A DNA stretch of 57,489 nucleotides, filler included, from Porpidia crustulata (Eukaryota): the NCBI GenBank assembly GCA_964255105.1. It is 5 parts of 5 records of this genome, joined end to end, with 100 filler letters (N's around TTAATTAATTAA, not from the genome) between each part and the next. Parts side by side here need not be neighbours in the genome. Positions count along the whole stretch, not along the records: positions 46,090 to 57,489 come from CAXUWE010000664.1; 4 more parts are not named here. The stretch is one strand, 5' to 3'. The translations under genes were made by a program, and so were the position numbers. Positions 1 through 57,489 of this stretch are shown in pieces (the stretch's first letter is position 1; the number at the start of each line of letters is the position of its first letter). Below the pieces are notes generated by a model. That model searched no databases, was not told the DNA's origin, and saw only the letters and a list, made by a program, of their open reading frames with translations.

Positions 1-58
1 CCTCAAACCCCAAAACACCTCACCCACACCCATATGTCGCAACCCGTGTACCACCCAT

Positions 59-3000
59 TCAATCCCCATGATCCCGATACCGCACCCCGCCTCTCAACTC
101 ATGAACCGCCCATTTGTCCACCTTCTTGTCGCCGTCCGTGTAGGTCGTACCGTCTCGCAGCTCGTGCCGGACCACGGCTCGCGTCTTCCGCGGCGTGGTT
201 CTGTTGCTGCTGCCCTTTGCGCTGCCGGTCTCGTCCTCTTGGCTGTCGTCGATGCCGTTTTCGGTGTAAGAGGTGCCGTCCCGCAGCTCGTGCCGGACCA
301 TGGCTCGAGTCTTCCGCGGGGTGGTTCTTTTGCTGGCTTTTGCGCTGTCGTTGTTCTCTTCGCTGTTGTCAACGCCATCGTCGGTGTATGTGGTGCCGTC
401 CTGCAACTCGTGCCGGACCGCGGCTCTCGTCTTCCGTGGCGTGTTTTCTTTGCTGGCCTTTGCGGCGTTCTCGTCTTCTTGGCTGTCGTCGACGCCATCG
501 TCGGTGTACGTGGTGCCGTCCCTCAACTCCTGCCGTATAGTGGCGCGGGCGGGTTTCTGGGGGCTTGGCGTCACGGTTGTTTTGTCGGTTTTCTTGGCCT
601 CGGGCTTCTTCTTTGGCACGGCGGCTTCCAGTTTTTGGATTTTGGAGGCGCCGAGGCTGGCCCACCAGCTCCAGAGTCCTTTGGCGTAACCTCGTTCCTC
701 GGCAGCGAATTCGACGGGAGGGCCGTTCATCTGCACGTCCTCGCCCTTTTGGAAGACGGCCCAGGCGCTGGTGTCTGTGCTGAGCAGTAGTATTCGCTTG
801 GCTTGGGTTTGGACTTGAAAGTTGCGGAGGAGTATGGCATCGCCCTCCGCGACGAGTGGGAAGGCGGTTTTGCGGGGCCGGAATACACGCGCGGTGGTTA
901 TCGGGGGGGTTTCCGAGGCGGAAGAAGGATCGGCGATATAGAGAGATTGATAGAAGTCTTTGGGGCCACTTTTCGCGCGGCTAATGGAGGTGCTGGAGAC
1001 GATTGTGGCGAAGACGTCGATGGTGTAGCTGAAGTGAGAAGATAGGGTGGAGAGGGAAGCAAAGTAGGAGTGTGTTGTGCGAAAGCCGGATTGCTGAGTC
1101 GAATCAGTTGCGCTGGGAGACGGAGTGTAGGGAAGGGTTTTGTGGAGCCGAGGCGACTGTCGTAATATATGAGGGATGGGCGACAGGGATTGGGTATCCT
1201 TCAAATAGTCACCTTCATCCGAAGAAATCTGACTTGTTGAGTGCTCGCTTTCTACGCTGTCACTGTCGGTATTGGGAATAATTTCGCTGGATCTTTTGGG
1301 TGCAAACCAGGGGCTTGCTGCATCAGTCCTTTTGCGATTTCGTGGCAATGTTGCTGAGAGCCTCCTCAGTTCTTGCAATCTTTCCACAACGGAACGTCTT
1401 TTTGGAGTGGCAGGGCCCACCACACTAGTGACATCGTTTACAGTCTCGGGGTAACGTTGTGCGAGATGCTCATGGTCTTCTTGAAGAGGTTGCAGCGATA
1501 GGGGCGATTCTTGTGATACCAGTTGTGTTTGCTGTGTCGCATTTGGGGTCGGAAGCTGGGTTTGAACCTTGGAATCGCTCAATGGACGCGTTTCCAACGT
1601 AATTTGTTTTGCGTCATTATCAATCTCGTCAGGTGCGTCTTTGGTGGATTGAACATTCTCGTCTCGACCCTTTGTATGTGAGCCCGTTTCGTGGTATGGC
1701 TGATCCGTTACAGCAGCGTTCTTGTTTTCTATCATTGATTTTCTAATAGCCTCAAATAAGTCTAAGATATCCGGGAATTCGTCGTCAGAATGATTCAGTG
1801 CCTCGTCTTCGATATTTGGAGTTTCCCTGATAGTGTCAACATCCACATGTTTATCATCTACTTTGTGACCTGCGGCTGGAGATGCTGCCGGGGAAAGTCG
1901 ATTGCCCGCTGCAGGATTTGGTAAAACGCCCATGATGTCTAAATCGTTAATGCCGGACTCATTTGATCTGGGTAGGTCGTCGACTTGACGTTGTACAGTC
2001 TCATCTATACCATCTTCCCTATCTTCCTTATCAGCCCCATCTTCAACCTCTATCCCCTCTTTCCCATCTTCCCCATCTTCGTTATCTTTGTTATCTTCCT
2101 CTTCCATGAACGATGCTGATTGATCGGTCTCCCATACAACACTAAGCTTAGTCTCTCTCAACGTAAGTGCAGTTTGAATTTCTAGTTCAGCACCTTCTAA
2201 CTGAACATCTTCTTCACCCTCGCTTTCGAGATCGATAATCTCGACACTTGAAACTTTAGGCAGAAGACTTGATGATGTGTCCGTTACTTCATCCTGGAGC
2301 TCTATCACTGTGGACTCTTCCGACATTTCTTCATCAGCTTTACCCTGCGTCTTATCATCATCAATATCTTGAACTTTCGCCACCAAACCGTCCGGAGACA
2401 GGGCAGGGAAGGATTTAATATCAGAAGAAAATTGGTGGTCGGCGAAATCTTCGGCGCCGTCTGCGTTTGATGGCTCGTCCTCAACTCTACCAGCACCATC
2501 GTCTTCGTATGGCCCCTTCTTCATCACAGAAGTTTCCAGGTTATCAAAGGAAATTGCCGAAATGTCTTCATGGAATATAGTTTCTGTATCTTCCTCGGCA
2601 GATTTGCATCGTGTAATAGGTTCTTGGTACTTCTCAAGCCCCTTAGCCTCTAAACAGTTCGTCTGTGCCATATCTCCGCTACCATCGGCCTTAACATCCT
2701 CCATGACAACCGATTTAGCATCTTGTATCTTCTCATGCACTGAAGGAGATTCCTCAAGATCATACTCGTCTTCTATTTCCGAGTCTGAGAGAATATTAAT
2801 GGTTTCTATAGGAGCGTGGCCAGGTGAAACAGGATCATGGCTCGATCGATCACCCGAAAAAGCTGACCCATCAAGCCCGAAGTGCGATGCCTCAATTGGG
2901 CTTTCCTCGTCCTCATCTGGTGACTCGTCATGTGGCAAACTCTCCGCGGATGAATTTTGATAAATTCTAGGATTGATCCGTCTTCCGTCTTCGGCCTCAC

Positions 3001-11434: not shown

Positions 11435-11534
11435 NNNNNNNNNNNNNNNNNNNNNNNNNNNNNNNNNNNNNNNNNNNNTTAATTAATTAANNNNNNNNNN
11501 NNNNNNNNNNNNNNNNNNNNNNNNNNNNNNNNNN
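11435..11534. other. Artificial contig linker N44-TTAATTAATTAA-N44
   Basis: 100-nt spacer with stops in all six frames; identical at all four junctions. Confidence 0.98.
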
Positions 11535-16585: not shown

Positions 16586-19290
16586 TCAACTGAACTTCAC
16601 CCCCCGGCTCGGATCCCACTGCCCACCCTGCATCTTCGGCACATGTTTCGTATTCGGATACGCAGGATTATGCACATTCTCCGCCCCATTCGCCGGCGCT
16701 TGCTGCTGGCTCGAGCCCCCGAAATTAATCCCCATCTCCGGTTTCCACACGCCGGGCGCCGGGACCGGGGGTGGCGCGACGGCGGCCCTTGTGGGTGTCG
16801 GAGCCGTCAGCGGGTCGGCCGCGGGCGCTTTCTCGTGGTAATGGGAGCGCAGGGTTTCGCGCTGTTTCTGGTCCTGCAGGTTGTTGGTCTGCGAGATATT
16901 GAGCAGGGACATGGAGTTGGCGAGGTCTTGTTCGAACTGGGCGGCTTCGAGACGGCGCTGGTAGGCGAAGGTTTTGCAGTCGTCCTTGAAGCGGGTGACG
17001 ATGTTGGCGAGGTCGTTGTAGAACTTGCGGCCCGTGTTGAGGTTGGAGACGATTTCTTTGTACTTGAAGTAGGCGTTTTCGAGACGCTGAAGGGCCTGTT
17101 CTCGGTCCTTGGTCGAGGAGTCACCACGTCGTGCAGCGGTGAACGCGTTACTTGCTTCTTTTAGTTGGGCGTTGAGGCTCCCTTGCTCTTGCTTTTCATC
17201 CAGCACCATTTGCCGGTCAACGTCGTAGCGTTGGAGACGGTCTTCGAACATGTTCTCAAATTGTGCGGGTTCGATCTTTTGCATGGGAAATTCTCGCTCG
17301 AGACGAGCTGTCTCTGCTAATATCGCTGGGTTGATATCATCCTTTTTTGCCTTGTCACGAAGTTTCTCAATTGTCTTCTTTCGCCTGTTCTCAAGTCGGC
17401 TGACTTCGTTCAGCTGCGCTCTCAATGCTGATATGGCTCTTTCAACATTAGGAGTTATCGTTGCTCTTCGGCTGCTCGGCACATAATCCTCGAGATCTCG
17501 ATCAGTGCCACAAAGCAATTGAAGGACAGCTTCGCATTCCTTGAGCTTTCCCTTGACCAGCTCGTCACTACTGTTTGCCGATTTGAGATAACCCTCAATC
17601 TCAGCAGCTTGCCTATACATCGGTTCAGCCGCTTGCTGTGATGCCTGTCGAGTCCATCTATCTGTTCCGTATTTAAGCTTCGCACGATCGTCCTCGGCCG
17701 ACTCAGATTTGAGAACCTCAACACCTTCATTGTATGTTGCGGCATCATTCGCCCTGAGCTTTGAAATTTCATGCATCGTACGCCGTAGTCGGTGAAGGCC
17801 TTCCTGCTGGCGAATTTCCTCGGCATGGGAGGTCAATGTTGGCGGAAGACCTAAGGGCTTCTCGAGAGCTTGAAGAGATCCAGGTAGGTTGAGAGATTGT
17901 AAGAGATCCCTCAGTTTATTGGTCGTGCTCTCCAACTCGTCAATAATAGTTGTGTTCACTACTCTGTCCTTACGCTCCTGATAGATGCTGATCGCGATAT
18001 GAACGGCGTAGGGTACTAATTTTGCGAAGAGCGGTTGTCCGAAAATGCCCCTTTCACCGAGGGTAGACGCTGGATCAGAAACTTCTGTTGGCGTTCTTGG
18101 AGTTGCCATTCCAGCTCGGTCGAGAGTCCTTAGCTCTGACTTCGGGGGTACTGGTATCAGATATATTACATCATTGTCTTTCTCTGCTCTTTTGAGATCT
18201 TCAGTGACTCTGGACTTGAGACCATTCAGGTCGCCCAAGACAATCTTATTTATCCACCTTGACTCTTTCAGCGCTTCGTTGACACAAACCAAGCTGTCTC
18301 TCAGCCTTGCAACCTCCTCTCCATACCTACACTTATCTAAGCAGTCTCGGGATGCTCTGTATTGTGCCGCTGCCGCGAAATGGTGGTGCTTAGCTGTCAT
18401 GTGGTGGATCCAATCGGTGCTAATAATATCCGACTTCGTACCGTATTCGGCAGCCTGGTCATAGAAATCAGATACTTTCGCGGCTAATTTTGCGATCAAG
18501 CTATCTTTGAGTCCATCTTTGACGGCTTTGGACCAGAAGCATTCTTGGGCTTGAGCGAGCAACAATTGCTGGAGACTTTCTAGAGTCATCATGTCCATGT
18601 CTTCCGGAGGCGTAGATCGTAGATCAGGAATTATGTCATTCTTCAAATAAGAAATGACACCGGCAGCCTGACAGAAATAATTACATGCTGACTTAAGTCC
18701 TTCGCTTGTGCTTCGGTTCAGCGAGACAGCGAGTTGAGAGTAGAGGGAGGCGAGGTTGTATAATACGTTTGCTAGCTCAAAGCGGAGATTATTTTGTGAT
18801 ACTAAATGGTACTATCAGTCGAGTGTTCACGGAAAATCGTGGTCAGCCATACTGGGCCTTTGTGTGTTGAACCCTAGCGCAGGATACCAAGTGAAATCTA
18901 CCCCAATCTGCCGCGTTTCCCAGTGAGTCAATTTCCTCCAGATTGTTCCGATGAGTCGTGGTTTCTACCTTACGTAGGTATGAAGAGCCTACTCACATCA
19001 ATGGGGAATTTCCCCCCAATCCAGACCAGTTGTGCTGCATATGCTGCGAGTTTTCTGATCCCGCTCACATGAGCTTCAAGCGTATTTGCAGCATCTACCC
19101 GTAGCCTATCAATAATTTCGAGGTCCTGCTTGAAAACATCGGGGTGCTGATCATATTTGGACGAGATATACTGCCGGATTGCAGCTGATAGCGCTACTGA
19201 ATGTGTTCTTCGAAAGGGCAGAAAAAGAATATTGCTACGAAAGACTATTAGCGTAGTTTGCAACAAATGTAGAGGCACTTACGAAGCCAT
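16586..19290 (-). CDS. palA: pH-response regulator PalA/Rim20 (BRO1 + ALIX V domain + Pro-rich tail), 4 exons
   Basis: ATG GCT TC|GTAAGT micro-exon, then NILFLPFRRTH..YDQHPD..GGKFPID, LLLAQAQECFWSKA, YGEEVARL, RAEKDNDVIYL and GRKFYNDL. Introns approx 19282-19235, 18996-18908, 18852-18803. Confidence 0.92.
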
Positions 19291-22965: not shown

Positions 22966-23065
22966 NNNNNNNNNNNNNNNNNNNNNNNNNNNNNNNNNNN
23001 NNNNNNNNNTTAATTAATTAANNNNNNNNNNNNNNNNNNNNNNNNNNNNNNNNNNNNNNNNNNNN
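22966..23065. other. Artificial contig linker N44-TTAATTAATTAA-N44
   Basis: Same 100-nt spacer. Confidence 0.98.
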
Positions 23066-34477: not shown

Positions 34478-34577
34478 NNNNNNNNNNNNNNNNNNNNNNN
34501 NNNNNNNNNNNNNNNNNNNNNTTAATTAATTAANNNNNNNNNNNNNNNNNNNNNNNNNNNNNNNNNNNNNNNNNNNN
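34478..34577. other. Artificial contig linker N44-TTAATTAATTAA-N44
   Basis: Same 100-nt spacer. Confidence 0.98.
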
Positions 34578-45989: not shown

Positions 45990-46089
45990 NNNNNNNNNNN
46001 NNNNNNNNNNNNNNNNNNNNNNNNNNNNNNNNNTTAATTAATTAANNNNNNNNNNNNNNNNNNNNNNNNNNNNNNNNNNNNNNNNNNNN
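45990..46089. other. Artificial contig linker N44-TTAATTAATTAA-N44
   Basis: Same 100-nt spacer. Confidence 0.98.
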
Positions 46090-46966
46090 TTGTATTATAG
46101 GCTTAGTCTAGTCAATTGATATAGTTCACTACGACCCCTCACAGGCCGTCGGAATAAGGAGGTAGGTTCAAGTTTGCATAGGTCATTTTTTTAATTAAAC
46201 CTTTATGACATGACCGCGCCTGCGTACAGATTGAAGTCAAGTGCATATCCGAGTTGCTGGCTTTTCGATAATAAGCCTTGTAAACATGCTAATGTGTCTT
46301 ACGCTTGAAAGGCCTAACGACACCCAGCGGAGTATGGTCCGGCGGGTCAAGAGGGTCTTCACCAAGATGATAAGATCGTCGGGGACTCTGTGGACCCGAT
46401 CCATGATGCCCTCCTATCTGAAGATCTCGTGTATACATTCCAGGAATGGAAGCTGAACTTGATGCAGAGTCATTCAGTGACACCTGCGACTCTAGGGGTA
46501 CGTTCAGCCCCATCGATAGCAATAGCCACATAACACTTACGTCGACCCTGGTTTAGACAGATGCTGACTAGGCACCGTACCGAGAAAATATTTGCCCTTT
46601 GTGACAGCCCATTTCGCATGTACTATGGGGCGGTGTTAAGTATGATGTCCAATTCCAATTGCGTGGAATTGAAACAAAGCCGATTGCTAGGACTTGGGTA
46701 ATTTTTATTGATTCAGAAATGGAGCAAGACATTGGTGTAGGGAAATGTTGAAGTACTAGCTTAAATTAGGCTGCATCGGTGCTTCTCTTTCCAACAGAGG
46801 GATTTGGAAGCTAATATCCCGCGAAGTCGCCAAGAGGGCGCTGGCTGTCCTTGAGCTCCTATAAATGCATTTGACATCAGCACCTTCTATTTCAGCTTAG
46901 CCCGGTCCCCAGTCACCCCCAACCTGTTTTTACTCCTTTAGATTTGCCAGCCGGGGGCAGTGCATT

Positions 46967-48022
46967 ATGGCTAGCACAGAGGACAGTAGAGAAAAGAGCA
47001 ACGGCAATACTGCCAAGCCTGACCAGGTTCGGGATGTCTTTTTCTTTCCCCACATCCGAACCGCTTCCCATGTTCTCTGTCGCCTCCTCTCCGGCCAAAC
47101 AGAATGGGCTCCCCAATCGGATTACCATTTCAAGCGTGCTTTTGACTTCGCCAGAGAATCCTTCAATTGGGGTCCGTTAACGGACGTACCTGACCAAATA
47201 CGGAACAAATTTTAGGAACTCCTTCAGGAGGGTTTCGACGAAATCCAGCGTGACCGGAGATCTGCTAGGAACGATGTGAGTTATTCCTCCAGGGTCAGAT
47301 TTGTCTTCTGTTGGTTATTCAGAAAGAACAGGGCAAGAGCATTCTTCTCAAAGAACACACGTTTTATACATGGGAACCGTCCAAGCTGTTGCAGAGCATG
47401 TGGGGCGGCCCCAGGAGACCCGTCTTTCACCGTGGTTGAAAAGGGATCTCCTATGTCCGTGGATTCCGAAAAGACGAACCCAGCTAAATTTCCTGACAGC
47501 TTTCTAAAGTCGTGGAAACCCGTTTTCTTGATTCGACCTCCAGCGCCGACGTTTGAGTCTTGGTACAGAGCTGAAAGCGGCGCTCGGCATATCGATCTTT
47601 CAGACAAGTCATGGTCATTCTTCACCAGCTTCCAGTACTCTCGGCAACTGTACGACTGGTGCTTGTCAAATAGACCTGATGGGTCGTCGATGCCAATCGT
47701 TATTGATGCGGATGATATTCTGAATAAAAGCTCAACGATCAAGAAGTTGTGCTTCTCACTCGGCATGGACACGCAACATATCCCCAACAATTGGGATGTC
47801 ATCCAGGTGCCAGAGAACGCCGGCTGTCGCGAGTCAAAGTTTATGGGTGATTATTGAAACTCGACCTCCATTGATAGCTCAAAGAGCTCACGGGGTCTCG
47901 ATATGCCGGCCAAATACACCAAATGACAGACTGACTTTGGACCTGACGTTTCGAATGAAATTTTGAACATCGTGGAGAAGGCTACGCCAGACTACAACTA
48001 CCTCAAGAGCAAGAAACTTTAA
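46967..48022 (+). pseudogene. Sulfotransferase-like P-loop protein pseudogene
   Basis: FFFPHIRTASHVL, GKSILLKEH, TNP..FPDSFL..WKPVFLIRPP..FESWYR, PIVIDADDI and PDYNYLKSKKL. In-frame stops at 47213, 47855 and 47924, and a frameshift near 47415. Confidence 0.8.
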
Positions 48023-48339
48023 GAATGCTCGCTTAATGGCGGCACCTTATCTGTGATACTTTGTATCTGGTATACCTGCCGCAGAGGACAAAGAGTTACA
48101 AAGAGCACGGGCAGGTGGGATAAGTGCTTCTCTGAATAACATCTCGGTGGAAGTTTTGTGAAAATCGCGCACGTATTGTGTTGATGCCGCGGCTGGAATC
48201 AGTAACTATGATCTTATGAGTAGGCGTTCTGGTGGGTTGCGTGGCTTCGATGGTAGCGATTCAAGTATACCAAAAGCGACGTTGTCGAATTCGCATTAAG
48301 AATCTCGGTTTGAAGTTATGACAGACATCGCGTTCATAT

Positions 48340-49240
48340 TTGCCATTATAATGTACTTGATAAGTAAGGTGCGCACACACTGCAAATACTACTCGTCCTT
48401 GGTGGGCGGGTTCGTCGCTCTTGAGCCCTACCCGTAGACTGACCCGTAGGCTCTATATTCGTAGCTATAGATCGATCTAAACCCTCTTAGACCGTCATAA
48501 CACCCCCTGTAGCAATATCTGACCTCCGTAGAGCTCTCTTCTTCTTTTGGCGTTCGTTTGTGGCCCGTAGCTTCTTATTCGTCGTCTGCGAGGAGGATCG
48601 CGGAGTGCATAGCTATTTTGCAGCCTTTGACTGTTTGTTAAATTGTATGGTCCTTATGGCTAGAAGAGCCAGCTGTACGGTGTTGTACAAAGTCTTCTAT
48701 TGCCTTAACCTGAATTTCTAGCTCTTGTATAATATGTGGCGTCTCTGGGACCCAACCGGTTGTTCGGTTGTAGAAGGAGAAGGAGGGGTAGGCGTTCGTA
48801 ATTGGGTATTGAGCTTTGAAACGACACGCTCAGGATCGTACGGGACTAATCCAGTAGCTATAAACCCGTTACGGATTGTATTTGAAGTTAAAGACTCCGT
48901 ATGGACCGTCAAATAAGCTAGAAGGAAATCAGACTTATCAATGTGGTTGATCCCGACTCGCATAAGATTCTCAATCTGTCGTACGTACAAACGTTCGGGA
49001 ACCGCAAAACAACTAGTGTCAAGAGGTTGAAGTAGAAGCGACGAGTGTGGTGGCATACAGAGAGTAATAAAATAGTGGTCTTTGCAAAACAGGTCGAATT
49101 CGAGTGTAACGTGGCTCCCGTGTCCGTCAAGAATAAGAAGTCTGTATACACCATTTGTACGGTCCTTTGCATGCCTCTCAAATACCTCCGTAAGCCAAGT
49201 CAGGCCTAATTGATCAGTCGTCCAACCGTTCTCACCGCTA
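48340..49240 (-). mobile_element. Fot1/pogo (Tc1-mariner) DDE transposase relic, 5' truncated
   Basis: ENGWTTDQLGLTWL..RLLILDGHGSHVTLEF..LCMPPHSSLLLQPLD..F, NTIRNGFIATGLVPYDPERV and LRTPTPP. The 3' part is degraded and no TIRs were recognised. Confidence 0.88.
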
Positions 49241-49455
49241 GTTTGGTTCGGGCTGTGCCGGACCGGGTCATATAAACCAGTGGAGACTCTATCCTACTCC
49301 ATTCTACTCCATCCAGTGGATCCTCCCGACCCGAACGCGCGAGGCTGGGCAATCCGACGCGGTGGATGGCTCTGCAGCTTGTTGATCATTGCAGGCTGAG
49401 CGCCATGGATTTACCCAGGGGGACGCAAGGCCCCTGTTACCCGAAGAAATTATCC

Positions 49456-51088
49456 ATGACAATGGGCATTCTCCAAGTATCGCCCACCCGCCATCTATAA
49501 AGAGCCTGGATGTCTTGACATTGTAGCTGTCGACTCCCGTAACGCGCGATAGCTTCCTTCGCAAAGCCCCCGGTCACCGGGAGATGGCGGTCTTCCAGAA
49601 AGCTGATTATCGGAACTGCTTGCGTGGCCTTGTTTACTGGTAGGAGTCCGACTGCTGGTTGCCGACGATTTGTTTCTCTAATTCAGTGAAAAGAAACTCT
49701 CCTCGGCGGATTTCCCGTACCAATACTTCCGTATATGCTCGAGGAGCGCCTGCTCAATAATCTATCGCAAACAACGGATACCATCAATCGCCTGCTGAGT
49801 CTGCAGGGTTTTGTGACAATGATCTGCTCCCCTCTTTTCGCGAAGTTGTTCGATTAAATCTCCAGTCAAAAGGGACCGCTTTCTCTGTCGCTGGGACTTT
49901 GTCTTTTGGGGACTGCGCTGGTCGCGTCCACCCTCACTTGCATGTGTCACCCCAGCTACGTGTCCGTTTACTCGATGAATCTTGACGGAATTTGATGCAG
50001 TATGGATGCTTTACCTGGACAGAATCCTGCAGGCATTTGCCGGCTCAGTAGCGTGGCTTGTCTACACAGGTATGGTCACCGAGAATGCAGACGAAGGCGG
50101 AACTGGGACAGTGATGGGACTGAGTAAGTCACTTATCACGATCGGAACCGTGAGCGGGCCAATGCTCGGAGGTGTGTTGCTAGGCTGGTTTGGATACTGG
50201 GCCGCGTGGTCGGTGCCGATGGCTCTGCTATTTCTCGACACGATTGTGCGGTTGGTGGTGAGACAGCCAGAGGGCCGTTCGCCGGATTCGCCCTCCTCGT
50301 TTAATAAGGCCAAAGACAGCGAGCCAGACACTGTCGTCCAAAGCGACTCCCACCTTGATGTGTAGGGAATTTCGACGGAAACATCGCCCCTGCTGCCACC
50401 GTCGCCCCGTCGGCCACCATCGACTTCGACAACGGAGGTCGGCTCAGACTCAGAAACAGAAGTGAGAAGCGATAGCGATTCAATTGTGGAAACCCGCAAA
50501 TCTATGCCGTGACGCTTTGAGATGTTGGTATCTGGACAAGTATTCTAAACACGATCGTCCAAGCCGCGGTTTGAGCTGGTTTCAACGCAACTTTCTTCGT
50601 GCTCCAAGTCCCTATAGTCTTTCTCTCCCCTCTTCTTGGCTGGGTCCGAGATCGCGTCGGTGTCCGATACCCAACGACGATTGGCTGGACCCTGTTGTGC
50701 CGTTACTATGCTGCTTGGGTATTCCCGGGAGCGGAATACCTTGGCTCAGTGGTAGCCAGAGAATTGAACAATCGGCCTTTATTGTATGCATATGTGGCAT
50801 TGGATTGTTTTTGCCATTCGTTCAAGGTGCTGGGGCTTTGTACATGCGGAGTAAGTTAGACGTCTGTTGCTCAATGAGAAGACGAATGTTAACTACGGAT
50901 CGATATCGTGAATAGATATGGTCGGGAAGCTGGAAAAAGAAACCCCCAATATATTTAGGGTTACGATGGGCATGCGAGGTGCTTCGCGATGATATCAGTC
51001 TCGTTTAACACTGACCTGATGCTGGGTCCCGCTGTCGCTGGAGGGCTGTTTGGCAGCATTGGATATTGTAATATGAATATTATTCTCG
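49456..51088 (+). pseudogene. MFS transporter pseudogene (vesicular amine transporter/DHA1-like)
   Basis: Fragments WRSSRKLIIGTACVALFT, RILQAFAGSVAW, GTVSGPMLGGVLLGWFGYWAAW, LSPLLGWVRDRVGVRYPT and LGPAVAGGLFGSIGY, broken by stops (e.g. 50363) and frameshifts. Confidence 0.8.
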
Positions 51089-51195
51089 GTAGGCGATGAC
51101 TTGATTCCGTTTCTCGATCTATGTACTGCAAGCATTGCCATACCACTGTATGATAACATGACATAGGGGCTGCGGCTGAGAGAGATAAAGTCTAC

Positions 51196-54035
51196 ATGCT
51201 CGACATGATCTTGAAGTACCAACGCCCGCGAATCGCCTATTATCTGAAAAAGCTTAAGAAATTGTTGAGATTCGGAGAGCCAACAACACGCACAACTCAA
51301 AATAAGCGACCAAGACTGTCTGATGAGTGGCTTCAAAAGCTACCAGTTCTCCATACACGCAGCTGGATCGACGACAACGAGAACGAATTTCAGTTTTCGG
51401 GCGCCTCACTTAACGAAGCTGAAAACATTTCCAGAGCTGCTTTGTCTGTTCAAAGTCTGAAAGACATTAATGACGAGGTCGACAGCATCTTCAAACTAGT
51501 TGACCTAGTCTCTTCTTTGGATGAAAACGAGGATGATCATCTGAGTCAGGCAATTCTTAAGCAGCTATTACCATCCTTATTTTCTGTCTGGCGATTTCGA
51601 CGGTTTCAAGCATTGATCAAGGCACGTGTACGTGCCCGATTTCAAGACTCACAAAATTCGGAAAAGAGGCAGAATGAAGCAATTACAGCCCTGAAATTCC
51701 TTTGTCGGGTTTACTATAGTGTCGACACGTTCATTCAAGCTGCCGAGAGCATGCCTATTTTCAAGTCTGTGGAGTGTATCCCAATACCTCTTCAGCCAGC
51801 GATCCCCACGAAAGCAACGTCCAACGCCGTTCGAGCACAAGCAACACCACTGGAAATTGCCAAGAGCCTTGGGCTATATGTACGTAGTATTGGTTGGCTT
51901 CACCATCTTGAAAATAAAGCCATCAAAAACAGCTTCGGGAAGCTTCGAAGAGGAAAATGTCATGTTCACGCCGAAATTCAGCTACTGTCCCATCAAACCC
52001 AAATTTATAAGTTCCGACATGGAAATGAATATGTACATCCCTACATTGGTTGTAGCAAGCTTTGTTGCTTACTCTGTTGGCTGTTGCTCCGAGTTCATGG
52101 CGCTTACCATGTCCGAGGAACCCACGAAACCATTGTACACCGGTGGGAGATACCAACGTTCCTTTTGACAGAAGCCTACACTGCTGAGTATCAGCCAATT
52201 TTGCAAGACTTCTTCGGTTTCATCAGGATGTTACTGCAGAATTTACTGGACCAACCCTTTCCTTTGAGGCATCCTAGGCTCCTGGCCCAATCGTCTGCCG
52301 CTCTGTCCACAACGCAGACCGTACTGGACCGAGAAAAAGCCCAAATGGAAAAGCCACAGCTAAATACAAGGTAAGTAAACCTGCTTCCAAAACTTCACCT
52401 GCTAACAAAACTTGCAGGCGACGAATGATGATGCCTATGGTCGGGGATGATGGACTTCTTGTAATTGACCTCTACGAGAAGCCAGGATTCGTCTCTGTCA
52501 TGGGAGCATCGTTGACTAAGCCAAAGGAAATGTCCCGCGAGAAAGCAGAAATATACAAGGAAAACCATATTCGGGTCAAGTTTGGATTGGAGAGGACCGA
52601 TGAAGTGCCCCCAAAGCAAAGCCAATTTGCAAAGACGTGTCGTCGTTGCCACCGACAATCAAGCCTTCGCTGTTCCTCGTGCCGAAGTAATTATTGCTCG
52701 AGAGAATGCCAGAAGAAAGATTGGAGCCGGCACGTCTTTGTTTGCAGGCTGATAAAGCGATCAAACGACGTTGACTACTTGAGAATCTTTATCAGAGAAT
52801 GGTCCCATGCCACAGGAGATGAGTGGAGGCAAGCCCAGACTCTGTCCAAGCTATACTCGGATGATGATCTTTGCAAAGCCTTCGGGTTCAATAATTGCGC
52901 CAAGCGCTACGACGTTGCCAAACTTCTTTGCTTCTACACCCATATGACGTCCAAACTAGGTACAAACGGAGTGCAAGTGGGACTAGACGGAGGAAATCTT
53001 GGTGATTACTTGGCAGTCGCTGCAGAGCTGATACAATATGAGGGGAAAGAGATCTATCACGACTGCCCTTGCTTTGCTTGGTTCTTTTATCGACGGTCTT
53101 TTATTGACTGCGTAATACCAAATTGGACAGGCGACTTCGCGTATCAAGCAGCTGCATTGCGACGGCTTGAGCATGCCCTTTCAATCGTAGAACAGGACGA
53201 CGCTGTGCACCCTCTCTCAATCTCCGAAAGGGAGGTGCTAAGTCTGTACTCAATATTATTCCGAGACTTCAACAACATTCCTGGTCCTCTCACTTCCAAA
53301 TGGCTCAAGTATTGTTTCTACTTTTGCACCAACCGTAGTCAGTCTATGGAGCTCGCAAAGCTCTACGTTCAGCTAGCTAAGAGTGGGGCATCACTCGAGG
53401 AAATCGCGAAGGCTTATGAGGAAAGAACACTGCCTACTCTGATGAGACGCAGAGGTTTGAATGCTTCAACTTTTCAGGCAAAAGGCGTCGCTTTTCACCG
53501 CCCAGACCTCGAGGAGCTCGGCATATATCGTCTCATCGCTGAAGTCAACCACACGCTCTCAGGTCGTTTCTGCTACTGCCATCTTCCAAAACCAAACTGT
53601 CATCCAAAGTTCGAAACTTACCTAAGTCGAGAAAGTGACGGAGACTACGGATTTCACGGGACCGATACATGGGAACATTGGCAACTGTTTAATTTCTACA
53701 AATATGTCTTCGATCACCAAAACTTCGATGCACGGAAAATGCAGGAGGCAAAACGACACCCAGAAAAAGAAAAGCTCGATCAGTACCTCGACTCGCTTGT
53801 TCCCGATTTCCGAAAGAATATAGGCAACAGAGTGCTAGGAGATATCGTGTTCCCGAAGCTAAAGGCTGGGGTCAAATTCCCCAATGGTCGCCCGCCTTGT
53901 TGGTACGTTATGCATGACACAATAGCTCCCGAGGGTTTGGATTGTTTTACATCAACGTTGGTATCGGAACTTCGAACAATGACCCAGGGCAACGAAGAGG
54001 ATGCGCTCGAAGATAGAAATCTCATAGGTACATAG
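51196..54035 (+). CDS. OTT_1508-like Zn-dependent deaminase domain fused to MYND zinc finger and uncharacterised C-terminal domain, ~930 aa, 2 exons (51196-52370, 52418-54035)
   Basis: HVHAEIQLL..PYIGCSKLCCLLC..VRGTH..W deaminase signature. A 47-nt intron GTAAGT..GCTAAC..GCAG joins the ORFs in frame. CRRC..CSSCRSNYCSRECQKKDWSRHVFVC is MYND. Start codon uncertain. Confidence 0.8.
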
Positions 54036-54915
54036 TGCGTCTCCATTGCTTGCAGTAGTCTGCTATTGGAAGTGATAACGTAGCTGGGTTATCAATGACG
54101 ATTTTCGAAGTTTCATGAGTCGCTTGAAGATAAATTGACTCTTTTTATGGGACGAATCTACAGTATAATCATCATTAAATATACTGAATCAAAAACGAGG
54201 ACCATCGCTTGAGGTAGCAGACGTTTAGAGATTATTTGTTCTTTCGAGTTTTAAACATTGGGTCGGGAACACGTCTTTGTAAATGACGCAGAAGGCATAC
54301 TCAAGGAACAATTCCGACTTCTACAAGGTCTCTAATACTACGACGAGCAACGACATGGTAGATATGATCAACAAGATTCTATAGCATTACGAGGTAGATC
54401 ACGCTGATGACATTGATTATCAATCCGACGATGGGCTTGAAATTGCGATATGCTACTCAGAGGAACGCCGGCAAGGTCTACATCTGCAACTCTGGATCTG
54501 TGGGGACGGGCCTAGAAACGACTTCAACGATGATATTCAGTCTAGAGAAAGAGGGACAAGGGGTCAAAGGTAAGAAGGAGGAGAGAGGATGGAAGTCCAA
54601 GGTCATCCGGAATGACGCTATACCCCTTTAGAAGGGTACTGAAATCCTCCAAACTCGTCAAAATTGAGTACGTTGAGACTTATATCAGTTCTGCCACTTA
54701 GATTCGATATAGCATATGCTTTTACAGTTACGGTGGTAGTTGCTGCGATGCCACGTGATGCAAAATCAAGTGATCTATAAGGATGGATTGGTTTGAGCCC
54801 TTTTGGGCCGCTCAATAGTACAATGGGTTCAACAAGGGTGGGCTGGGTTTTTACAATTCGCTTCCAAAGCAGATCGACGATCATACTAGGGTTAGAGAGA
54901 ATAATACATTAATTT

Positions 54916-56180
54916 CTAGTAAAATATCTTGAACAAGAAGAAATTGGTGTAGACATACATCTGGAACAAAAGCAACACGAATGAATTCATCTCATCTTGC
55001 ATCGCTCTGACACACCATCTCTCCATGACGGTCCTCGGCGCGCCTTCTGTAAATAACATGAGCTTCATCATATCTTCCGTCTTTCTCGTCACTGGCTCCA
55101 CCCTTTTGAACATCTCCCGTTCATACTTCTGAATTCTCTGATCCAAAGCGTTTTCCCCACCATCTTTAATCGCACCCTCAATAACATTTGCCAGTTCTAC
55201 TGCGTCTCTCATCGCGGTATTCACTCCTTCACCCATAAATGGCGTCATCAAGTGCGCTGCATCTCCCAGCAGGGTGACTCCGGGCTTGTTCTCCCATCGT
55301 ATGCCTACTCTATCCATAAACACGATCGCGGCGTGATCTTGTCGTCGTCTGCGGACTGCATGAGCTTGACAAGCAGAGGATCCCAGTCTCGATACTCCTT
55401 GCCCAAGGCATCTTTGACCGCCGGTCCATCGAAAACATCATACCCAGATGTCTCCATCCAGTCTTCGTCGCGGGCCTCCCACACAGAGACGTAGATACTT
55501 TTGTCCCCCATCTGTTGACCCATGATCACCTTCCCGTCTGAGAAGGCGAATATTGATCCGTGATTGACAAATTTATCAAGATCGGGATAACGCTTCGCAG
55601 CGTCCGAAATAATTAAATTGTGTCCGCCTACACCTGAAAAGAATGGCTTCTCCAAAGTCAACAGGTTGCGGACTTTACTCCATGCCCCTTCAGCTCCAAT
55701 CACAAGATCAAAGCCCTGCTCTAATCCATGATCGAACTGCAGCGCATGAGTGGTCGGGTCAACGCTCCTGAGACGGCAGCCCCATCGTATTGTGTCTTTG
55801 TCCAAACAATCATAGAGCAGTTGGCGCAGTAGCGCACGGTCCACCTCAGGCTTCCCCTGCGAAAACCAACTGCCTTCTTTCGTAGCTTTCAAGCTTAGAT
55901 AGCAAAGCAATCTCTTATCGCACACAGCCAGAGCATCACCTTCGAATCTGGCAAGCTTGAGGAAGTCTTCATAGAGGCCTGCTGCTTTGAGCGCTGCGAG
56001 GCCTGTGTCGTCGTGCAGATCAAGAGTCCCGCCTTGGCTGCGAGCGTTGGGAGCGGGCTCGCTTTCAAAGACTACCACCGTGACGTTCATACGCTGGAGG
56101 AGGCGAGCAAGTATACATCCTGAGGGACCGGCGCCAATAATGGCAATTCTGTACTTGGAGGCATTGATGGAAGACGACAT
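54916..56180 (-). pseudogene. FAD-dependent monooxygenase (FAD_binding_3, TetX-like) with a single -1 frameshift near 55321
   Basis: IAIIGAGPSG, RSQGGTLDLH, PEVDR, LVIGAEGAWSKVR and TLLGDAAHLMTPFMGEGVNTAMRDA. One missing base in TCG-TG-TTT separates the two ORFs; could be a sequencing error. Confidence 0.8.
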
Positions 56181-57052
56181 GTTAGGCAGGAGATGCGACG
56201 ATTGTAACGATATTGATTTTGCTTCGCGCACATTCAGGTGTACTCAACGATGAAACATATCCGGCTCTGCAAAGGCTTTGACTGTCTATGTCGCAAAGAG
56301 AATAATGTCCGCAGATTCGCGGATAGCGGGTGGTTCTTAGATCTGAAACGGAAAGTCAGCACATCTGAGACTATCAGAGAAGTCTTCTTCCACGAACCAC
56401 TGCCCTTCATTGTAGACCTTCTATGATAGTAAGCTTACACTACAGAAGTCTTCAGTTTTCAATCTTGATATGAAGAAGGGAAGAGAGGCTAGAGACGAAT
56501 GGGAGATGGTGGCATGACATGTCGGACTTATCGGGGTTATCAGCCCGATCCAATGACTCGGATACCCTGCGAAGACCTAATAATTAAAGCTACAACTCGA
56601 TAATGACAGAGGCTGTAATGCAATGTGGAGGAGATGATTACGCTACTACTCGGCTCAAAGACTGGCCTTCTTGACATTCTACTGCACAGCTTCGTACGTC
56701 AGGTTTTTGAATCTTCCCGTGTCCGACTCCGACACAGAAAGGAAAAGCAAGCAACTGTCCGTAAAAATGCGCCCTTTTCCATCAAGACACGAGGTTTCAT
56801 GGAGTGTTCTGACCTGGATGCACGCCATGAATCCGTCGTCATTAATCTTTCCATGTGTTGTTGGTAAATTACCCTGAGGCCATGCTAACTCTCTACGGAT
56901 CAGTCTCTGTCAGTCGAAAAATTTTGTCCAAGCTTCTCGGAAGTTTGTTCAGGATGAGCGAGTAGCAGGGAAAGAGAAGCAGACTCACATATCATCCCGT
57001 ATGAGAGGAAATAATCACTCCTTGACTTGCTATCATTATTGCTATCATCAAT

Positions 57053-57439
57053 ATGATTCAGGATGGATCGGAAATCAGAGCTGATTCGATTGCCGTTGAG
57101 AATACGCATACGGTTATTGCGCCGAAGAAAAGATTATCCGCTCTCAGGCCTGTCTCATTTACGCCATCTATTGAGGATTATAGGTTTCTGGGAAATTCCA
57201 TCCCGGGATCATTCTCCAATGCAGGCAACGACAAGAGAAATTCCGTTGGTGACGGCAAGGTAATTCAGTACACAAGGGAACCAAAGAAAAATGAACAGAA
57301 AATAAAACCCATAGCAAACAAGGCGGCGGACCCCCCCAGTTTCAAGCCGGGCTATCGATTCTACCTCGCTTTTGCTTCGTTGAGTATTATCGCAATGATG
57401 GTCGCGTTGGATGGAACGTCTGTGTCTGTGGCTTTGCCG
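57053..57439 (+). CDS. N-terminal part of a DHA2-type MFS efflux transporter (truncated at window end)
   Basis: Open frame ending FKPGYRFYLAFASLSIIAMMVALDGTSVSVALP followed by a possible GT donor; start uncertain. Confidence 0.65.
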
Positions 57440-57489
57440 GTTCGACCAAATTTTCACACTCAGGGCTATTCCACCCCCAACCCCCGCAC

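Follow-up and report, generated by a model that had tools for sequence, protein, structure and literature searches.

Does the locus at positions 51196-54035 of a 57,489-nucleotide stretch of DNA from Porpidia crustulata (assembly GCA_964255105.1; this whole stretch is termed the window) encode an intact and active deaminase? Read from the sequence alone (hereafter the sequence-only reading), it holds an OTT_1508-like nucleic-acid deaminase fused to a MYND finger without any lesion over 2.8 kb, i.e. a regulated or targeted editing, mutator or defence enzyme with a possibly undescribed architecture. Our analysis recovers the gene and points to a different fate: the feature is a spliced gene of a known deaminase-MYND family, whose architecture has been in print since 2011, and the locus is, with a probability of roughly 0.68, a recently 5'-truncated and most likely decaying copy of this Pezizomycotina gene family. 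In such a copy the first exon (~173 amino acids, aa) would have been lost, the 3' splice site of intron 1 now marking the onset of similarity to the relatives; as the frame is still open, the loss would be recent or the constraint only partly relaxed, and decay would have begun with the loss of two conserved Cys residues and a faster protein rate.

The window consists of five pieces of ~11.4 kb, which are whole small contigs joined by linkers (Table 1), so that gene neighbourhood is readable only within one piece; the contig of the deaminase gene itself is 46090-57489 only. Reading of open reading frames (ORFs) gives a first ORF at 51157-52374 (+ strand, first ATG at 51196) and a second at 52278-54035 (+). 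As proposed in the sequence-only reading, a canonical 47-nt intron splices the two in frame: its removal fuses the frames via a split AG/G codon and yields a stop-free coding sequence of 930 codons. The product corresponds to residues 174-1103 of the proteins from Puttea exsequens (MCJ1278318.1, P0208; P numbers denote relatives of the window protein) and Amylocarpus encephaloides (KAG9231531.1, P0214) with 87% identity and is collinear throughout, the upstream exon being 87% identical to their residues 174-563 and the last exon 87-88% identical to their residues 566-1103. Four RNA runs (X1, X2, X4 and X6; two metatranscriptomes and two of uncertain library type) contain contigs of ~93% identical relatives, not the window's own sequence, and say nothing on the expression of the window copy. 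In 4/4 runs such a contig spans the intron and is, on balance, 47 nt shorter there (49 nt are missing and 2 foreign letters present in X1, X2 and X4; in X6 the figures are 53 and 6), i.e. the spliced reads that were looked for over the intron are seen, from these relatives only. A second, unrelated RNA contig, present in three runs, matches only 34 nt of the MYND-coding part (52692-52725) and represents other MYND genes of the same communities.

The architecture is not new. Iyer, Zhang, Rogozin & Aravind (2011, NAR 39:9473, PMC3239186) describe lineage-specific expansions of the OTT_1508 deaminase clade in fungi and a subset of its members that is fused to a MYND finger, and a full-text literature search for OTT_1508 together with MYND returned nothing besides this paper. 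Dozens of public Pezizomycotina proteins of ~1100 aa share the deaminase-MYND fusion, and PF14441 and PF01753 were precomputed or confirmed here in several full-length ones; those annotated at full length measure 1023-1159 aa and belong to Glarea, Biscogniauxia, Byssothecium, Lindgomyces, Puttea, Amylocarpus, Aspergillus and Xylariales. Searches with the last exon yielded 52 relatives at E≤1e-3, and those with the first part 9 longer relatives and 534 representative matches, 41 of them at E≤1e-30. A search for related DNA found a true relative at one of 46 metagenome loci (L001) and at none of three genome loci, the rest matching the MYND finger only. A full-length member is made up of an N-terminal module (helix 1, strands 1-2, CxKNEG), a helical insert of ~300 aa, the rest of the deaminase core, the MYND finger and a Cys/His-rich helical domain of ~420 aa. 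The window product carries insert, deaminase part, MYND finger and C-terminal domain in collinear order and falls into the family clade with 98/95 support.

Pfam recognises both domains in the spliced product above cut-off (Table 1), and the complete set of Zn ligands and catalytic Glu noted earlier in HAE and IGCSKLCCLLC is indeed there: H258-A-E260 and C291-L-L-C294 are kept, in columns that are at least 90% conserved in the relatives. The signatures listed for the OTT_1508 clade in Table 1 of Iyer et al. 2011 (PMC3239186), namely GxxK before CxxC and an extended Str-4/Hel-4 loop with a conserved H and aromatic-xx-P, are represented by G285-C-S-K288, H310 and W317-E-I-P320, all in conserved columns and all kept.

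What the gene does not have is its beginning. In tblastn searches with ten orthologues, nothing before residue 86-230 of the query (P0019: 20) aligns to the window, and the alignments start at 51166 or, for two of the ten, at 51127 and 51292. The N-terminal 60-232 aa of the orthologues find nothing beyond chance in the 57-kb window at E≤50 (tblastn; the best unrelated match, E 0.008 and 25% identity, is in the POT1 gene on another contig), and neither do the first 172 aa of P0208/P0214 (best E 0.014, in POT1 again). Similarity ends at a conserved intron boundary (51166/51167), and two in-frame stops at 51151-51156 precede the homologous GAAAERDKVY. Upstream of 51166 the RNA contigs of the relatives diverge from the window and code for KACMERISRE, the end of family exon 1, and P0064 has ~25 extra residues at this boundary as compared to its close relative P0065, which indicates that the intron was read through in this gene model. 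Full-length relatives carry ~143-230 further upstream residues. Among 44 strong matches, 20 have at least 140 aa upstream, with RLAExLARY in 20/20 and C[AS]KNEG in 19/20, and the module is found in 6/6 further orthologues; the remaining 24 start from the same Met or close to it, which is what ORF-type gene calls would do downstream of an intron. All 20 NCBI-annotated relatives that were checked have the upstream module (17 by motif scan, P0114 with one motif of two, and 3 by eye). The window copy has no module with RLAExLARY and C[AS]KNEG, and the space upstream is too small for an exon of 520 nt. As the N-terminal queries find nothing and the remnant of an MFS transporter gene occupies its place, the first exon is absent from the window, and the claim of an intact gene without lesion is not confirmed.

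Splicing at a possible 78-nt remnant of family intron 1 (Table 1) would bring the deaminase ORF into frame with the last stretch left open in the MFS remnant (50992-51168; ...MLGPAVAGGLFGSIGYCNMNIIL). This in-frame join may be due to chance, given a one-in-three frame match and the weak 5' site GTAGGC.

The content of the lost exon was approached by structure prediction. P0026 from Amniculicola was modelled with AlphaFold (144-sequence alignment; mean predicted local distance difference test score (pLDDT) 84.4, predicted template modelling score 0.65). The model shows a helix (residues 2-16) and two strands (37-44 and 49-56), followed by a mostly helical stretch of ~300 aa; this insert is succeeded by the helix with HAE (354-365), a further strand (374-381) and the helix with CxxC (387-396). 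The Met of the window corresponds to P0026 residue 96. The model of P0054 (34 sequences) has pLDDT values below 50 in the deaminase core and was not used for the core question. Docking of the 391-aa part of the window protein with P0026 residues 1-90 scored 0.77 in 3/3 runs, the best control reaching 0.17; in benchmarks the mark is reached by 51/78 solved complexes and 2/108 mismatched pairs and, for eukaryotes, by 39/65 pairs without a like complex solved earlier and 2/126 unrelated pairs. The runs share at least 88% of contacts, with a partner pLDDT of at least 75. Among the confident contacts, partner strand 50-54 pairs with window residues 191-195, and partner residue 39 and helix 6-13 contact 283-285 of strand 3, the interface including window residues 258-260 (HAE) and 275-288 (strand 3).

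The fold searches gave less. In VIA-align (48,161 chains) the P0026 model matches blasticidin-S deaminase 3oj6_A with Z 6.0, a root-mean-square deviation of 4.8 and 106/134 residues (range 1..442, 13% identity), this being one alpha/beta match among helical ones that tie with it; otherwise the VIA-align searches with the 1125-aa P0054 model and the P0026 model returned generic helical matches only (Z≤6.2). Foldseek against the PDB gave no match at E≤0.001 for either orthologue model, and only MYND domains are recognisable (the model of P0054, an orthologue and not the window protein, matches 2od1 with probability 1.0 and TM 0.68), deaminase core and C-terminal domain remaining unmatched. A profile search (A2) against PDB sequences found unrelated proteins only (best E 0.14). 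Based on docking, model, fold match and the description by Iyer et al., helix 1 and strands 1-2 of the deaminase core are placed in the lost exon, where they are predicted to pack as central sheet strands on strand 3 and the HAE helix. A product from ATG 51196 would then be unable to form a complete deaminase fold and would be catalytically dead.

These results bear on the view, taken in the sequence-only reading, that the gene encodes an intact and active OTT_1508-like deaminase-MYND enzyme of ~930 aa, to which we give very little credence. The Pfam matches, the full HAE/CxxC set and the open spliced frame speak for it. Yet the Pfam model spans 64 residues only, between helix 2 and the point where the strand-4 loop begins, and helix 1, strand 1 and strand 2, i.e. 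the elements required for a complete core, are absent together with their exon, although they are present in every NCBI-annotated relative checked. Nor does the proposed role as a regulated or targeted editing, mutator or defence enzyme hold for this copy, with the core exon gone, two Cys lost and the protein rate accelerated.

That the enzyme is still made in full from an exon 1 located elsewhere, owing to a misjoin, a rearrangement in intron 1 or a separate N-terminal module, i.e. that the break is an artefact of assembly or sampling or that the gene is split, is decidedly unlikely. The assembly comes in contigs of ~11.4 kb, the break coincides precisely with an exon boundary and the two parts are predicted to associate as separate chains, all of which would fit. 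However, the contig runs 5 kb further upstream with other genes, so that no contig end truncates the gene, long intact ORFs on other contigs (e.g. Tra1, 3615 aa) indicate good base accuracy, and the Cys losses and the protein rate are independent of the break. We know of no trans-splicing or split deaminases in the deaminase-MYND family.

Signs of decay are found in the MYND and C-terminal part, where the window differs from 67 relatives at 8/111 columns that are at least 85% conserved. FGFCFC is nearly invariant in the relatives (F298 65/65, G299 64/65, C301 62/64) and degraded to YCFYFC in the window, and the Cys at the position of Y496 is also lost (Table 1). The FGFNNC, YCFYFC and DYGF motifs of a C-terminal Cys/His region, named in the sequence-only reading, are thus present, but YCFYFC is not an intact family motif; 12 of the 14 Cys/His residues of this domain that are conserved among relatives are kept. 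Of 66 columns with at least 95% conservation, the window deviates at 5 (rank 6 of 68), as compared to no departure in its close relatives P0001, P0002, P0005, P0006, P0053 and P0055, one in P0003 and P0054 and three in P0004 and P0007. With Glarea as outgroup, relative-rate counts are 59:28 and 56:26 for the window against P0208 and P0214 (p=0.0012), a protein rate roughly double that of these intact relatives, and against P0001 they range from 31:10 to 20:8 (p 0.0015-0.041). In the tree, the terminal branch of the window (0.091) exceeds those of P0214 (0.034), P0208 (0.019) and P0053 (0.013) and resembles those of P0055 (0.096) and P0007 (0.083), whose gene models are without the catalytic core. 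Compared to the X1 contig, the window has 22 nonsynonymous codons and 14 synonymous changes, giving an estimate of ~0.6 for omega, the ratio of nonsynonymous to synonymous rates (dN/dS), from the first 40 of 288 differences (codons 14-193). A dN/dS near 1 together with disrupted orthologues had been named as telling against an intact enzyme; disrupted relatives do exist, and the dN/dS sample stands at ~0.6.

Several observations weigh against a decaying, truncated copy. The 930-codon frame has neither stop nor frameshift, and intron 2 retains intact splice signals at both ends; when random substitutions were simulated, the frame was still open in 44% of cases at 20, 9% at 60 and 2% at 100 substitutions. 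From the 2.8-kb open frame it follows that full neutrality cannot have lasted long, i.e. the loss is recent or the relaxation partial. In the deaminase part the window differs at only 1/32 conserved columns and keeps every catalytic and clade-signature residue, and the C4-C2HC ligands of the MYND finger are kept 8/8 (C74, C77, C85, C88, C93, C97, H105, C109). With Biscogniauxia or Byssothecium as outgroup the relative-rate counts (27:25, 28:24, 30:23, 31:23) are not significant, and there is no window excess against P0002, P0003 and P0055. The 3oj6_A match, tied in Z with unrelated helical ones, is supporting evidence only, and the docked pieces are two parts of one fold, so that the pass, obtained without the alignments built here, may partly reflect likeness to solved deaminases. 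Finally, as the assembly is fragmented, exon 1 could sit on another contig, and a chimeric contig is also conceivable.

The open frame may also be taken as a sign of function. A functional, N-terminally truncated protein could be made from a new start, either ATG 51196 or via the 51089-51166 intron, and serve in a MYND or C-terminal role without deaminase activity, e.g. as competitor or regulator of full-length paralogues. Long neutrality would hardly have left a frame of 2.8 kb open, no MYND ligand has been lost and GTAGGC...AG would link the MFS-remnant frame in phase; by analogy only, ZAO-1C, a truncated isoform of the partner transcription factor ZAO-1 in the Neurospora OLD-ZAO system, is proposed as a negative regulator (PMC12754623). 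Against such a role, two nearly invariant Cys and FGFCFC are altered, the neighbouring genes have decayed, and the join has a one-in-three chance of being in frame and a weak 5' site. On balance we regard a functional truncated protein as unlikely and favour decay following the loss of exon 1.

Lesions are also seen in other members. A metagenome contig (L001:1-1206) carries a copy of the C-terminal domain with several frame-changing deletions, at least one stop and 79% identity in its best segment, and in about half of the annotated close orthologues (P0007, P0053, P0055, P0034, P0026, P0030) the gene models leave out the MYND finger or the HAE/CxxC core, the catalytic core being absent from those of P0007, P0053 and P0055. 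These incomplete models may reflect real lesions or annotation errors, and judged by its sequences the family looks erosion-prone. A mutation bias like that of repeat-induced point mutation was considered and rejected, as the raw counts of window-to-relative changes (A>G 43 and T>C 36 versus G>A 35 and C>T 29) show no marked skew.

As to the C-terminal domain of ~420 aa, no Pfam model matched it in the window or in the relatives, and the best score in the ESM Atlas was 0.82, below the lead level of 0.9, the matches being clusters of MYND-containing fungal proteins. The absence of a fold match is no evidence of a new fold, the domain having been modelled only within the whole protein.

Table 1. 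Coordinates of the features of the deaminase-MYND locus, its contig and the linkers in the window
Feature	Position	Strand	Details
N44-TTAATTAATTAA-N44 linkers	11435-11534, 22966-23065, 34478-34577, 45990-46089		between pieces
DDE_1 (pogo/Tc5-type) transposase fragment, 191-aa ORF	48718..49293	-	profile 47-177 of 177
MFS transporter remnant in place of exon 1	49979..51098	+	ends TGA 51096-51098
Possible remnant of family intron 1, 78 nt	51089..51166	+	GTAGGC 51089, branch-like TGATAAC 51151-51157, AG 51165-51166
Exon corresponding to family exon 2: large helical insert, helix 2 (HAE), strand 3, helix 3 (GxxK, CxxC)	51167..52370	+	
OTT_1508_deam (PF14441) Pfam match, aa 257-320 of first part	51964..52155	+	E=1.8e-17, 63.5 bits vs cut-off 27, profile 1-63 of 64
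HAE (H258-A-E260)	51967-51975	+	
IGCSKLCCLLC	52045-52077	+	GCSK-LCCLLC at 52048-52077
Intron, 47 nt	52371..52417	+	GTAAGT...CTAAC branch site...CAG
Last exon: linker, MYND finger, Cys/His-rich helical C-terminal domain	52418..54035	+	stop 54033-54035
MYND finger (zf-MYND, PF01753), aa 74-109 of last exon	52638..52745	+	E=6.1e-7, 29.8 bits vs cut-off 22.7
YCFYFC, degraded form of nearly invariant FGFCFC (F298Y, G299C, C301Y)	53310..53327	+	
TAC (Tyr), C496Y	53904..53906	+	Cys in 56/57 relatives
FAD-dependent monooxygenase, two overlapping frames	54916..56243	-	FAD_binding_3 profile 2-207 and 256-347 in different frames

The surroundings of the gene have decayed as well. The DDE_1 fragment, ~2 kb upstream of the deaminase gene, covers the C-terminal two thirds of the profile only. 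MFS_1 matches significantly only in 49979-50365 (profile 81-184 of 347), with more transmembrane-like segments in other frames. The two frames of the FAD-dependent monooxygenase are separated near 55320, inside a conserved stretch (ITPRS / VGIRWENKPGVTLLGDAAH) that is too tight for an intron, which makes the shift a frameshift. The statement that the four other genes of the contig are disrupted thus stands for these three; this verdict does not cover the fourth gene (46969-47857). On 46090-57489 we found no inverted repeats and one direct pair of 25 nt at chance level, and no terminal repeats flank the gene; in the same interval none of 33 ORFs of at least 50 aa (E≤0.01) and no ORF of at least 150 aa has a zinc-finger or fungal transcription-factor Pfam match. 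Pieces 1-4 carry the housekeeping genes POT1, HDA2/3, PalA, Tag1, Tra1 and CAF1A, which need not neighbour the deaminase gene.

The main interest of the locus lies in the distribution of its family across classes. P0208 from Puttea (Lecanoromycetes) and P0214 from Amylocarpus (Leotiomycetes) are 92.9% identical over 1103 aa, and the P0001 cluster (at least 90% identity, 90 members) includes the lichen formers Puttea and Sarcosagium as well as Amylocarpus (Leotiomycetes). The gene tree, with relatives including P0208, P0214, P0213, P0053 and P0026, is at odds with taxonomy: the window groups with Puttea, Protoblastenia, two Amylocarpus copies, Lachnellula and Amniculicola in the 98/95 clade, which is nested among Leotiomycete sequences, has branches of 0.01-0.17 and mixes Lecanoromycetes, Leotiomycetes and one Dothideomycete. 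Biscogniauxia and Byssothecium form another strongly supported cross-class pair (100/100). The PalA/BRO1 gene of the window (16586-18811, - strand), in contrast, is 60-77% identical to its named Lecanoromycete best matches (Alectoria 77%, Imshaugia 76%, Umbilicaria 77%, Puttea 69%, and Agyrium, the lowest-ranked of them, 66%) and 62% to Amniculicola, with no Leotiomycete among the best 120 matches. As these best named matches are lichen formers, the assembly probably derives from a lichen mycobiont or the bin of a lichen metagenome. Near-identical cross-class copies of a gene with an omega near 0.5, set against the divergent PalA, suggest horizontal spread.

We therefore tentatively raise the possibility, which we hold to be somewhat against the odds, that the deaminase-MYND family spreads by horizontal transfer from one class of Pezizomycotina to another, carried by a mobile element or being an element's own gene, and then decays in place, the window representing an eroding landed copy in a genome of lichen type (Lecanoromycete-like). 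The several degraded copies and the transposase fragment 2 kb upstream are consistent with such mobility. A possible alternative is that the cross-class pattern results from contamination of lichen metagenome bins, or that contig 5 comes from another fungus than contigs 1-4.

As an enzyme, the window copy is of little importance, its architecture being known and the copy most likely inactive. It does illustrate that a clean OTT_1508 Pfam match and an open frame do not prove an intact deaminase in these fungal proteins: as the Pfam model covers 64 residues and the core is split by the ~300-aa insert, pipelines and readers will overcall fragments. Horizontal spread, if confirmed by genomic flanks, would link a nucleic-acid deaminase family with antiviral RNA editors among its Neurospora relatives to gene flow between lichen-forming and other ascomycetes.

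MYND fingers bind proline-rich peptide motifs, and in an intact enzyme of this family the MYND finger and the C-terminal domain would serve to recruit it to partner proteins. For the MYND-fused forms, a role in chromatin-directed DNA mutagenesis is put forward by Iyer et al. 2011 (PMC3239186). Unlike the fungal OTT_1508-clade MYND fusions considered there, the window copy has no N-terminal core elements, and whereas their example from Magnaporthe, MGG_12698, also has a SIR2-like domain, the window family instead has the Cys/His C-terminal domain of ~420 aa. As compared to blasticidin-S deaminase (3oj6), the core of the window family is interrupted by its ~300-aa insert. The closest full-length relatives, P0208 and P0214, share PF14441 and PF01753 with the window product, and the 'HIT/MYND zinc finger-like protein' of Glarea lozoyensis (P0054) is collinear with it at 67-68% identity; all three have ~173 more N-terminal residues, with the RLAExLARY helix, two strands and CAKNEG, and retain FGFCFC as well as a Cys where the window has Y496. 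In Neurospora crassa, the OTT_1508-like deaminases OLD-1 and OLD-2 are reported to edit neighbouring zao mRNAs from adenosine to inosine in virus infection (Honda et al., as cited in PMC12754623 and PMC13327615). In the OLD-ZAO module the gene of the zinc-finger transcription factor zao, with an editable premature stop, is adjacent, whereas no such gene was found among the scanned ORFs on the contig of the deaminase gene (11.4 kb); OLD-1 and OLD-2 are compared here by their description only. By analogy to OLD-1 and OLD-2, the full-length members of the family are probably nucleic-acid deaminases and more likely RNA adenosine editors.

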